A stretch of 61,887 bases of DNA, counting the filler. It is 12 parts of 12 records of this genome, joined end to end, with 100 filler letters (N's around TTAATTAATTAA, not from the genome) between each part and the next. Parts side by side here need not be neighbours in the genome. Positions count along the whole stretch, not along the records: positions 35,535 to 40,807 come from SRR7504441_1379; 11 more parts are not named here. One strand, given 5' to 3'. Each line of letters starts with the position of its first letter. The stretch's first letter is position 1. Positions 35,578 to 38,484 of the stretch are shown piece by piece. The notes under the pieces were generated by a model. The model ran no database searches. It saw only the letters and a list, made by a program, of their open reading frames with translations, and had not been told where the DNA came from. A program made the translations under genes and the position numbers.

Positions 35578-38484
35578 TCAGTGGGGACCGGCCCGGGTGC
35601 CCTTCTGTTGCAGCTCCACTGTGTAAAGGTCGATGTCCAGTTCGAGCCCAGCAACACCCGAATCCCAAGCAGACTTGGCAATCGCGGGAGCAATGGCCGA
35701 CAGCAGCCGCTCATCCAATGGCGAAGGGATGATCGATTCTGCCCCAAAGCCCGGATCAGCCCTTGCCAGCTCAGCTATTGCGTTGGTAGCCGCCATCTTC
35801 ATCTCCTCGTTGATCTTCCTCGCGCGGCAGTCGAGCGCGCCCCGGAAAATGTACGGGAAGGCGCAAACGTTGTTGATCTGATTGGGCAGGTCGGATCGGC
35901 CGGTGCCCATGATCACGTCGGATCTAGTCTTTTGAGCCAAATAGTAGTCAATTTCCTGTCAACACTCAGCGGCGGCGGTGTGCGGTCAGCACCGGGGTTG
36001 GATTTGCCAGGCAGAAGAGCAGCGGGGAGCGATTCATTTTGAGAAGCATCTCTGGCGTCACAATATTGGGGACGGAGCAGCCCACAAACACATCCGCCGA
36101 CTCTATCGCCTGCGGACCGATCAGCTGTGGCACCCAGCCAGCATCAGACTTGGTCTAGAGTACGCTCGGTGCGTGGCATCGCAATCCCGTGGAGGTAACA
36201 GTCCGGGTCGGCCAGCAGATCGTCTCTCTCGGTATGCACCACGCCCTTGACGTCAAGCCCAATCAGGTTCTCTTTTGGCACTCCAAGGTTGACAAAGTGC
36301 CTTGCTACTGTGAACCCTGCAGCGCCCATCCCACTCACTACCACCTTCACCTACACCGCCGGTCAGCCGTGCGATCGCTGCACAGCGCCTCGCTGATGTC
36401 CTTTTCGGCAACATGCAATGCATTCACCAGCCCTGCCCCTGCGATGATGGCGGTGCCTGCGGGGCCGTCAGAGCTCGCCCGCGCCACCAGAAGCACCATG
36501 CTGGTCGTCATGCATCACAGGGATGTTCACCCTCTCCTGCCACCCCCAGCACTCCGACACGAATATTGCTCTCGGAGCGGCACCTGCACTCGCGGCTCTA
36601 TGTAGTAGCACTCGGGGGCTTTGATGTCTTCTAAGTTGATCCCTCCAAAAGTCGGCTCGAGCGCGCATATGATATCGATCAGCTTATCCGGGTCCGATTC
36701 ATTCACTTCGATATCAAACGCGTCCAGCTTCCCAAACTTCTTGAACAGCACTGCCTTCCCTGCACTGGATCAGCCTATACTTGGACAGACCGGCCGGTTA
36801 CCCTCCATCACTGGCTTTGAAGCCAGCGCACCAATATCACCGAGACCGAGCACTGCGGTCCCGTTGGACACTACCCCCACCAGATGCCCTCTGGCCGTGT
36901 ACTCGTAGGAGGTGGCCGGATCGGCCTCTATGGCCAGGCAAGGCTCAGCCACACCGGGCGAATACGCCACCGACCTGCCACAAACCTCTCAGCTGGCCCA
37001 ATCTTTTGGGCACAAAGCGTCCTTTGAGCCGAGCTGCTTTGTGGACTGGATCTCTAGCTTGCCTTTCTTACCCAACGAGTGGTACTGGAGCGCGTACTGT
37101 GCCACTAGGTAGTCCTGACGGTCGAGGAAGGCCGCCATGCCCTCTCCCAGCTCCTTGCCACGCACTCGCTGCTTGATCTGCTGCAGCCGGCTGTAGTGCA
37201 GACCCCCAAGCCTCTCGGCCAGCGCCACCGCCCCGGGGTGTACGACTGCAGTGAGGGTCTGGAGCTCTGAGACGTTCAGTTTGACTAGAACGCAGTCCTC
37301 TGTGGCCACCAGCTGCCGGTTGTACATGTGTCCGAACTGCTCCAGGTCATTTTCAAACATCTGAGCGACGTCTATGAAAGCCTCGCCCGGGCTGGCCTGG
37401 TGCGATATCGTGTAGCTGCCGCGTAGCCCGCCCACTGACACCTCGGCCGCTCCGCTCATCACATAGTAGATACAAGGCTCAGCCGTATACTCTGTCCCAC
37501 ACCACATTATCCCACCCGGTGCCGACACTCACCCTGGCCAGCTGAGCCCCCGTTGAACTTGTCGCCGGCCTTCACCCTAACCCGCTCCCCCAGCAGCTCG
37601 ATCACCTCGCGCTCGGGCTGGCTGAACCCTGCCAGTCGCCTCATAAACGCCATCTATTTGCCTCACCCGAGTCGTTTTCGACCCCAAACGAGCCGGAATG
37701 CACCTGCCGCTCCCGTCAGCCGGCCCAGCAGCGCCCGGCCGACCATGTCATACCCCGAGCTGCACAGTTTGGACGAGATCAGCGCCCGTTTGAACTCAGC
37801 GAGGTCGATCGACCCGTCACCGTTTGTATCGGCACGCGAGAACACGTCAGACGCTGTGGCCGCCACGCTCGCACTGGTCCGGCCTTCGGAGGCGGTGGCC
37901 AGCAGGTACTCGGTGAACTCGGTCAGATCAAGCTCGCCATTGCCGTCGGTGTCCCAAACTTTGAACTCAAATTCGGCCCAGTCCTCGCGACTCCCGCGCA
38001 ACATCACCGACAGCGCGGTCACAAACTCCTTGAAGCAGATCTTGCCCTCGCGGTCCGCATCGGCCGCCTCGAACAGCCCGTGGACCATCGGCTCGTTCGC
38101 AGCCACCTGCCCTGCCCCGTCGGGCCGAGCCCTCCGCCGGCGCCACCCCAAGCGCTTTGATCGCCTCCCCGAACTCGGTTCTGTCGAGGGTGGGCTCGGT
38201 GTCGAGGTTGTCCGACCCGAGCTTGTCCCGGAACTTGTGGTGCAGCACCTCCAGCTCGGCCAGCCCGAACTTGGTCTGTACCCAGCTCGGCCCGGCCTGC
38301 CGCCGGCAGCTGCACCGTGGCCAGCAGGCTCTTCATCGACTCGAGCTGGGTCCGGGCTGTCCGGGCCCGGTCAGCTCGCCCGGCGGTGGCACCCACTCCT
38401 GGTCAGCCCGGACGAGGCCCGGACCAGCCCGGTCAGCGGCGAGCGGCCCGCAGCCCGCACTGCTGCGCTGCCGAGTCGCCACAT
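35578..38484 (-). CDS. EF-hand + cNMP-like domain + prokaryote-type (MaeB-like) malic enzyme fusion
   Basis: Arg/Ser/Ala-rich presequence; EF loops [24 protein letters not shown] and [23 protein letters not shown]...LVATEDC; then ALQYH...[46 protein letters not shown] and [17 protein letters not shown]. Confidence 0.85.

Follow-up and report, generated by a model that had tools for sequence, protein, structure and literature searches.

An intron-rich eukaryotic gene predicted to join an EF-hand module and a cyclic-nucleotide-binding-like fold to a class II malic enzyme

Malic enzymes (MEs) of the prokaryotic MaeB type, or class II, are described in PMC7902834 and PMC12704298 as enzymes gated by metabolites through appended domains. 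In their dimers a cross-over arm gives the catalytic Tyr in trans to the active site of the partner (PMC7902834), and the multi-domain prokaryote-type MEs described there are "hybrid" enzymes with a C-terminal PTA sensor, a domain that binds acetyl-CoA and builds the hexamer, forming its core (PMC7902834, PMC12704298). For eukaryotes, a 2018 survey gave Trichomonas vaginalis and Entamoeba histolytica as the sole class II cases "found to date" (PMC5958461). Here we analyse a stretch of DNA of 61,887 nt (the window), made of twelve short contigs (about 3-8 kb) joined by spacers of the form N44 + TTAATTAATTAA + N44, one of which carries a gene whose predicted product places a class II ME behind EF-hands and a cyclic-nucleotide-binding (CNB) fold. 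This design is undescribed in the literature that we searched (supplements excluded), where no paper reporting EF-hands or a CNB domain fused to an ME was found. The window protein shares with hybrid MaeB (E. coli 9m2i/8jzo; Bdellovibrio 6zn4/6zng) the class II catalytic domain with its conserved catalytic residues and the fusion to a non-catalytic sensor, but whereas that sensor is a C-terminal PTA domain, here it is N-terminal, composed of EF-hands and a CNB fold, and there is no PTA. With the Trichomonas and Entamoeba enzymes it has in common a prokaryote-type ME in a eukaryote; those belong, unlike it, to anaerobic parasites, and in a comparison by description only no appended EF-hand or CNB domain was noticed for them.

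The explanation that we favour, with a probability of roughly 55%, is that a single nuclear, intron-rich, expressed gene of a marine eukaryote encodes a Ca2+-tuned class II ME of the mitochondrial matrix in which the CNB fold serves as coupling element. It is built on the gene structure (in part), the domains, the conservation of the design, the bacterial relatives and the loss of the nucleotide cassette, all of which were observed, and it extends to an origin, a mechanism and a location that we infer. The predicted order of parts is a presequence, a four-EF-hand module, a CNB fold without cassette followed by two long linker helices, and the ME. The host is a eukaryote, because the gene has spliceosomal introns and because near-identical spliced contigs occur in polyA seawater metatranscriptomes. 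A first-pass annotation, made from the sequence alone, had listed a presequence, an NCS/calcineurin-B-like region with three EF loops, a cNMP-like barrel with a non-canonical cassette and an ME in the same frame; each of these elements was confirmed in its place on the minus strand, and the open reading frame (ORF) 36989-37528 does run stop-free from the CNB-like part into the N-terminus of the ME.

The gene lies wholly inside one N-free contig (35535-40807), the end of which cuts the 3' untranslated region after about 43 nt. An exon model based on tblastn with fused homologues, frame continuity and GT-AG boundaries has 13 exons and a 2427-nt open frame of 808 codons with zero internal stops; the stop-to-stop frames of the minus strand contain all the pieces named in the first pass. 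There are 12 introns of 36-47 nt each, 11 of them GT-AG and one GC-AG. The parts of the model are listed here, with P0003, P0005 and P0015 standing for homologues.

38484-35578, minus strand: whole coding region, ATG 38484-38482, TGA 35580-35578; 13 exons, 808 residues
38397-38484, minus strand: exon 1, residues 1-29, basic acid-free presequence; donor predicted
38396-38357, minus strand: intron 1, 40 nt, GT-AG, predicted
38316-38356, minus strand: exon 2, residues 30-43; predicted from the frame, the flanking 40-nt GT-AG introns and likeness to homologue N-termini
38147-38275, minus strand: exon 3, residues 44-86, degenerate first EF-hand; from tblastn with P0003, P0005 and P0015
37690-38106, minus strand: exon 4, residues 87-225, EF-hands 2-4
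37654-37689, minus strand: intron 4, between the EF and CNB parts, preferred 36-nt GT-AG reading, predicted
37533-37653, minus strand: exon 5, residues 226-265, CNB-like domain from its N-terminal helix through its first strands
37532-37492, minus strand: intron 5, 41 nt, GT-AG, predicted
37014-37491, minus strand: exon 6, remaining CNB-like barrel, degenerate cassette, linker helices and first 27 ME residues
36975-37013, minus strand: intron 6, 39 nt, GT-AG, predicted; its removal restores LSVAYSPGV as in all homologues
36760-36801, minus strand: intron 7, 42 nt, GT-AG, confirmed by spliced RNA contigs of runs X3 and X4
36537-36583, minus strand: intron 8, 47 nt, GT-AG, confirmed by a spliced RNA contig of run X4
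36457-36496, minus strand: intron 9, 40 nt, GT-AG, confirmed by a spliced RNA contig of run X4
36351-36388, minus strand: intron 10, 38 nt, GC-AG, confirmed by a spliced RNA contig of run X4
36110-36149, minus strand: intron 11, 40 nt, GT-AG, confirmed by spliced RNA contigs of runs X2 and X4
35956-35992, minus strand: intron 12, 37 nt, GT-AG, confirmed by a spliced RNA contig of run X2
35581-37096, minus strand: class II ME domain, residues 398-808, exons 6-13, from Pfam and our own ME profile

RNA contigs of four seawater polyA runs were aligned with the region, X2, X3 and X4 representing three studies. In contigs of these three runs the six consecutive 3' introns (7-12) are spliced out, with exact gaps of 37, 40, 38, 40, 47 and 42 nt, and a single 580-nt contig crosses five consecutive introns. 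The joint at intron 10 allows four placements, among which the GC-AG placement alone ends in AG. Upstream, RNA contigs run unbroken over the EF exon (37737-38095) and from the CNB linker into the ME (37012-37172); the contig that stops at 37012 has 5 unplaced letters, compatible with intron 6 without proving it. Above 38095 the RNA contigs gave nothing usable, which is no evidence either way. RNA pieces at 38301-38334, 38047-38079 and 36936-36969 had mismatches and loose ends on both sides and were taken to come from other organisms.

Between the EF and CNB parts, three in-frame GT-AG introns can be drawn, and the family profile scores the resulting proteins as follows.

37689-37654, minus strand: 36-nt option, 243.4 bits
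37666-37640, minus strand: 27-nt option, 242.2 bits
37703-37629, minus strand: 75-nt option, best at 249.3 bits

The 36-nt intron fits the length range of the six confirmed introns (37-47 nt). This splice had been called the least certain junction in the first pass, and it is: 37629-37703 has no RNA cover. The collinearity of the gene, also proposed there, is borne out by the spliced model, which aligns in one BLASTP high-scoring segment pair to each of the fused homologues P0003 (51% over 804 residues), Creolimax P0005 (51% over 778) and Pycnococcus P0274 (50% over 750). Fused homologues were located on mRNA-sized contigs of 2.2-2.7 kb.

Three further features of the gene were noted. The three introns with lengths divisible by three (36, 39 and 42 nt) all contain an in-frame stop, such that retention would truncate the protein. 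Intron GC is 68%, and third-position GC declines along the gene, from 0.85 in the presequence and EF part to 0.78 in the CNB-like part and 0.69 in the ME.

Judged by its sequence, the enzyme is a complete class II (MaeB-type) ME with all catalytic residues. Pfam recognises it on separate exons (PF00390 at E 4.8e-12 and 4.4e-08; PF03949 at E 1.5e-06), and our own ME profile is covered from position 1 to 406 on the spliced model. The catalytic motifs are placed as follows.

36967-36950, minus strand: AYSPGV
36814-36755, minus strand: PVMEGK
36640-36623, minus strand: INLEDI
36512-36455, minus strand: HDDQHG
36010-35953, minus strand: LANPTPE

The active-site residues (Tyr, Lys, Glu-Asp, Asp and Asn) do not vary among the 13 family rows compared, and the window has the same motifs; by alignment offsets and PMC7902834, the catalytic residues correspond to Y52, K107, E149 and D174 of BbMaeB. 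In the same source, K250 of BbMaeB contacts the 2'-phosphate; at the equivalent place the window seems to have Asp and P0003 Asn, as read from alignments in a loop with indels, and we make no claim on NAD versus NADP from it. The ME of P0003 matches the E. coli-type MaeB 9m2i at E 1e-140 and 6zn4 at E 4e-131. All 12 PDB matches of P0003 at E <= 1e-20 are MaeB and other small MEs of prokaryote length (386-487 residues) or hybrids, and class I enzymes miss this threshold, in agreement with the MaeB class assigned in the first pass; a bacterial family member, P0124, matches MaeB at E 5e-148 versus E 1e-10 to 1e-13 for class I enzymes. The window ME, whose closest named relatives are 69-70% identical to it, was placed within a tree composed solely of MaeB-type sequences. 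No C-terminal PTA is present: the window protein ends 2 residues past the ME, and the fused homologues have no PF01515.

The CNB-like domain is recognised by Pfam cNMP_binding (PF00027) below the cut-off (E 0.001; 19.5 bits against 27.5) in ORF 36992-37528, which consists of exon 6 plus intron-coded residues. A profile made from 11 PF00027-positive CNB+ME relatives matches the spliced model at residues 235-376 with 59.6 bits (E 1e-20, Z=1). The CNB exon alone had no match among PDB sequences, where the best hit, MetB at E 0.44, is chance. Its phosphate cassette is degenerate.

about 37390-37355, minus strand: degenerate phosphate cassette, in exon 6

At this site the bacterial forms read F-L-G-E and the window reads F-I-D-V, with no Arg at the aligned column. 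The cassette Gly-Glu is kept in 19/19 bacterial rows, in 8 of 20 eukaryote-type rows and in none of the six window-clade rows. At the Arg column, the residue is conserved in 19/19 bacterial and 0/20 eukaryote-type rows, three of the latter having an Arg one place earlier. The nucleotide control that the first pass had considered possible is therefore unlikely in the window's clade. A structure model of residues 55-399 of P0003 (31 aligned rows, pLDDT 90.9, pTM 0.85) has low confidence only in the EF-CNB linker, the stretch that matches the window's junction. Its CNB part superposes on CAP with Z 12.5 (root-mean-square deviation 2.4 A over 122 residues), on Vfr with Z 11.9 and on SthK, SpIH, PKG and PKA-R with Z 9.6-10.7. 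For this nearest homologue, the model indicates that the CNB fold is kept while the cassette is gone. The modelled fold of P0003 is that of the CNB domains of CAP/CRP, PKA, PKG and HCN; the window differs from these by lacking the cassette residues and by a Pfam score under the cut-off. The cyclic-nucleotide-binding homology domains of KCNH channels are not known to bind nucleotide any longer.

Upstream of this fold lies the EF module, in which Pfam EF-hand_1 finds three stretches (E 6e-18). An 11-residue stretch of the degenerate first EF-hand is seen at 38275-38243, and three loops have the Ca2+-ligand pattern.

38061-38026, minus strand: EF2 loop
37953-37918, minus strand: EF3 loop
37830-37795, minus strand: EF4 loop

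Two of these three loops are fully canonical as Ca2+ loops, and at least two pattern-fitting loops are found in 14/18 family members. Against PDB sequences, the EF exon matches calcineurin B (E 3e-16) and GCAP1 (E 3e-14), and calmodulin more weakly (E 9e-11); the window module is closest to the EF modules of fused proteins (E 2e-33 to P0003). Among known structures, the EF part of the P0003 model is matched best by hippocalcin, NCS-1, KChIP and calcineurin B, with TM scores by target of 0.64-0.77, and AtCBL2 matches it with Z 13.3. By this model, the module has in common with NCS/calcineurin-B-like sensors (hippocalcin, NCS-1, GCAP1, KChIP, CBL2, CHP1) a four-EF-hand fold of about 170 columns. 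NCS proteins share a degenerate first EF-hand, which the window module also has, and an N-terminal myristoylation site is a trait of theirs. The window protein has no such MG site; it begins MWRL, and its EF module starts at about residue 44, behind the presequence. Unlike NCS-type sensors, the module stands in cis within an enzyme, behind a presequence and without an MG site.

The enzyme is probably mitochondrial, as judged from its N-terminus. Read from 38484, the presequence has 4 Arg or Lys and no Asp or Glu in 25 residues (5 and 0 in the first 30), and the first acidic residue of the protein is at position 35. N-termini devoid of acidic residues for 22-60 residues are found in the window, P0003, Creolimax, Pycnococcus and Pyxidicula. 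An upstream in-frame ATG (38542-38544, minus strand), 60 nt before the start used in the first pass, would lengthen the presequence by 20 residues (MLLGAFLPQRHFVGCGAGPA).

The same design recurs in other eukaryotes. Among 120 proteins listed in a search with the last exon, 14 combine EF-hands with an ME, 7 of these 14 also having PF00027; 22 others have PF00027 and an ME without EF-hands, and the remainder are plain or PTA-fused MEs. EF-bearing members come from Ichthyosporea (Creolimax CFRG6316T1, Sphaeroforma SARC_04648), Amoebozoa (Pyxidicula operculata, Amoeba proteus) and Chlorophyta (Pycnococcus provasolii GHP03157.1, Pseudoscourfieldia marina XRB12686.1, Tetraselmis chui, Pyramimonas parkeae, Myrmecia bisecta WJX72_003837). 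These eukaryotic proteins have the domain order of the window and fall with it in one clade of the ME tree; those of Creolimax, Pycnococcus, Pyxidicula, Tetraselmis and Myrmecia are 40-51% identical to it over the whole length. All of them are named automatically, as "hypothetical", "EF-hand domain-containing protein" or "malate dehydrogenase". The Tetraselmis/Pyramimonas/Myrmecia type differs from the window in keeping Gly-Glu, in a cassette insert, in acidic N-termini and in having a single pattern-fitting Ca2+ loop.

In bacteria, a full-length CNB+ME was found in 7 of the 80 loci kept, all seven in metagenome-assembled genomes (MAGs) labelled Gammaproteobacteria, Proteobacteria or "uncultured Enterobacteriaceae". 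One locus, L001, has an intact 581-residue CNB+ME ORF (cNMP_binding E 1.7e-17) beside molybdopterin oxidoreductase genes. The proteins of uncultured Gammaproteobacteria (P0054; L001), known only as database entries named "cyclic nucleotide-binding domain-containing protein", have the CNB domain, linker helices and class II ME in the same order as the window, and their ME is 61% identical to the window's. Unlike it, they lack EF-hands and presequence, have an intact cassette in 19/19 rows and score well over the Pfam cut-off; their CNB domains match those of PKG and PKA at E 1e-15 to 1e-12. On the chromosome of one complete Gammaproteobacteria MAG (L009:3001-4745) the CNB+ME frame is broken into two ORFs, 293 and 207 residues long, possibly by a frameshift or a long-read error.

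Two trees of the ME domain were made, the first with 99 full-length domains (22 partial rows dropped) and the second with 47 rows (2 partial rows dropped). In both, the CNB-bearing enzymes form one clade (100/100 in the 47-row tree), which thus unites the bacterial and eukaryotic forms, and within it the EF-bearing and eukaryote-type rows form one sub-clade (96/97). The window groups with Creolimax, Sphaeroforma, P0003 and the Pycnococcus-cluster rows at 100/100 in the 47-row tree, and the 99-row tree agrees. The branching order of the three bacterial lineages and the eukaryotic clade is not settled by these trees. Forcing the five green-algal rows together was rejected (delta lnL 99.9, p-AU 1e-56; the group was named after the tree had been seen). 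Green algae therefore carry two types, which calls for old paralogy or for transfer between eukaryotes. The lateral acquisition suggested in the first pass stands in so far as the nearest non-eukaryotic relatives, the CNB+ME proteins, are bacterial; it does not stand as an event specific to this organism, given the members in Ichthyosporea, Amoebozoa and two types of Chlorophyta. The bacterial partner, moreover, was not a plain or PTA-fused MaeB but an existing CNB+ME fusion, so that the EF-hand module alone would be the eukaryotic addition.

The family profile was also run against 1.84 billion representatives at 50% identity, and 24 of the top 150 rows were then scanned with Pfam. Among these 24, the only new EF+ME forms were P0122 and P0125; P0123 is a CNB+ME behind a long N-terminal extension, and P0036 and P0007 were already among the 120 proteins above. 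Since only a handful of rows emerged from so many representatives, the family is rare. Ordinary MEs and EF-hand proteins make up most of the 4040 matches at E <= 1e-30, a count that was not used. Residues 55-400 of P0003 as query returned only P0003 itself and one EF-hand protein, and a query of the Atlas with P0006 gave ME clusters only. A word-indexed search with the 179-residue junction ORF found 0 of 1279 candidates, which reflects a limit of the index, as the last-exon search found the family. Other N-terminal partners of MaeB-type MEs were seen in P0212, P0225, P0259, P0163, P0126 and P0133, the set comprising glycerate kinase, response-regulator receiver plus ACT, nSTAND NTPase, endonuclease III-like and tandem ME-like repeats; fusion to sensors at the N-terminus seems to recur in this enzyme class.

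To account for this distribution, we propose that eukaryotes acquired a bacterial, cyclic-nucleotide-gated ME in the form of a CNB+ME unit, that the N-terminal Ca2+ sensor would next have been gained inside eukaryotes, and that in the window's sub-clade the nucleotide site would have been lost afterwards. In the present protein, Ca2+ on EF2-4 would alter the packing of the EF module against the ligand-blind CNB fold, and the linker helices would relay this change to the cross-over arm at the N-terminus of the ME. The arm would carry the catalytic Tyr (here Tyr429) for the partner active site, such that Ca2+ would tune the decarboxylation of malate. Only about 30 residues lie between the end of the regulatory stack and the Tyr-donating arm, which makes allosteric control via the arm plausible. 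In the mitochondrial matrix, such an enzyme could tie Ca2+ signals to the supply of pyruvate and NAD(P)H. A bolder version, which we put forward only tentatively, is that a captured cyclic-nucleotide-gated bacterial ME was rewired to Ca2+, its nucleotide site decaying in one sub-clade, and that the CNB fold is now a purely mechanical relay.

Several observations weigh against the Ca2+-tuned mitochondrial enzyme. Ca2+ binding, Ca2+ dependence of activity, cofactor choice, location and oligomer state are inferred only, from sequence. The EF2 loop has an unusual Glu at position 5 and a Cys at position 9, and a degenerate cassette does not exclude another ligand. N-termini in the other sub-clade (Tetraselmis, Pyramimonas, Myrmecia) are acidic, so the location is not uniform across the family. 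The model of domain packing is that of P0003, whose identity to the window is only 36% over the EF module and 31% over the CNB-like domain. A model of the whole P0003 monomer was of low quality (pLDDT 69.5, pTM 0.46, 13 rows); it is uninformative on the contact between module and enzyme, and was unused for domain arrangement. In the gene itself, RNA contigs leave 37173-37736 uncovered, so the EF-to-CNB splice was not observed, a gap that is no evidence either way, and introns 1-3, 5 and 6 also rest on prediction. The candidate junction introns cannot be told apart: length favours the 36-nt one and the profile slightly favours the 75-nt one (249.3 vs 243.4 bits).

Whatever the outcome on regulation, what is added here is a class II ME whose sensor stack is of another kind and lies at the N-terminus. 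It is conserved across three or more distant groups of eukaryotes and in transcripts from marine plankton, and it has an uncharacterised bacterial CNB+ME precursor. Were the regulation true, the protein would offer a one-chain model for how Ca2+ signals reach central carbon metabolism outside animals, and would show an allosteric domain changing its input while its fold stays. Were the rewiring also true, Ichthyosporea, Amoebozoa and green algae would have a directly Ca2+-sensing mitochondrial dehydrogenase linked to the tricarboxylic acid cycle, and a natural swap of one allosteric input for another on one scaffold.

Among other explanations, the one that survives best accepts the fused protein and makes its main effector a small molecule, a non-canonical nucleotide or metabolite, bound in an altered CNB pocket, with EF-hands that are structural or constitutively loaded with Ca2+. 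That the CNB fold is kept, at high model confidence, despite the loss of the cassette suggests selection on the pocket or the fold; the intact cassette of the bacterial sisters and their matches to PKG and PKA make ligand gating the ancestral mode, and metabolite gating through appended domains is known for other MaeB-type enzymes (PMC7902834, PMC12704298). What makes us doubt it is that the Gly-Glu and Arg that hold the cyclic phosphate are absent in all six rows of the window's clade, and that canonical loops (two of three) and their retention in 14 of 18 members are unexpected for a purely structural module.

Improbable, in our view, is a role of the EF+CNB module in setting the oligomeric state, or in docking the enzyme to a partner or membrane, with no allosteric gating, comparable to the PTA domain in the MaeB hexamer. 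An appended domain does form the hexamer core of hybrid MaeB (PMC7902834). Modules of the NCS, KChIP and CBL type, whose fold the EF part matches, usually clamp a target helix of another protein, a habit that would suit docking. The module, however, lies only about 30 residues from the arm with its trans-acting Tyr, a position suited to allostery, and the pTM of 0.85 for EF+CNB suggests that the two parts pack on each other and not on an outside partner.

Rather less credible still is that the locus makes two products from separate or alternative transcripts, a 237-residue EF-hand protein (TGA 37665-37663) and a 583-residue CNB+ME (ATG 37653). The unspliced sequence does yield exactly these two ORFs, the second resembling the bacterial form of about 580 residues; no RNA contig bridges them, and EukProt includes a 547-residue Amoeba proteus CNB+ME isoform without EF-hands (P0023) that is marked complete. 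Yet only 9 nt separate the stop of the EF ORF from the ATG that opens the CNB+ME frame, which is too short for two independent genes and has no room for a terminator and a promoter, and this gap is spanned by the three in-frame GT-AG introns given above. EF-hands and ME also stand in one protein in the 14 of 120 homologues, several of them on mRNA-sized contigs, and it is such fused proteins whose EF modules the window's resembles most. An artefact, by bacterial contamination or chimeric assembly of unrelated EF-hand and ME sequences, might be suspected in a window that is a string of short contigs and in an ME 61% identical to that of a Gammaproteobacteria MAG, but can be set aside because the gene lies inside one contig without N, six spliceosomal introns within the ME part are spliced out in polyA RNA, and the same collinear design occurs in independent genomes and transcriptomes.

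We return to the locus of the favoured single EF+CNB+ME gene. On the same contig, a Rab-type small GTPase gene (plus strand, about 38640-39460), split by short introns, contains the GVGKSCLL motif, and one of its exons matches Pfam Ras at E 7e-11. It starts about 160 nt from the start codon of the ME gene, in the opposite direction, making a very compact locus. An Rfam search of this contig returned zero families. The order of contigs in the window does not show that genes flanking a spacer are adjacent, or even that they share an organism; the spacers are these.

8145-8244: spacer
12180-12279: spacer
17468-17567: spacer
21798-21897: spacer
25152-25251: spacer
31828-31927: spacer
35435-35534: spacer
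40808-40907: spacer
47566-47665: spacer
52204-52303: spacer
57215-57314: spacer

A 1103-residue open frame at 32123-35434 (minus strand) combines the end of a KR domain with an AMP-binding (adenylation) domain that is complete. It belongs to another contig and does not neighbour the ME gene; from its domains it is a piece of a hybrid polyketide synthase/non-ribosomal peptide synthetase-like megasynthase cut by the contig end. EF-hands also occur elsewhere in the window, in an intron-free 961-residue ORF of repeated EF-hand pair units (27224-30109, minus strand; EF-hand_1 E 1.6e-43) and in a second, 371-residue EF-hand ORF on the same contig (30640-31755, minus strand). Outside the window, giant proteins of 1660-3072 residues (P0127, P0129, P0132, P0148, P0171, P0175, P0181, P0183, P0206, P0232 and P0250) contain 8-13 tandem stretches similar to the NCS-like portion of the family profile. 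These proteins look like arrays of the four-EF-hand module, and the 961-residue ORF is only weakly like them.

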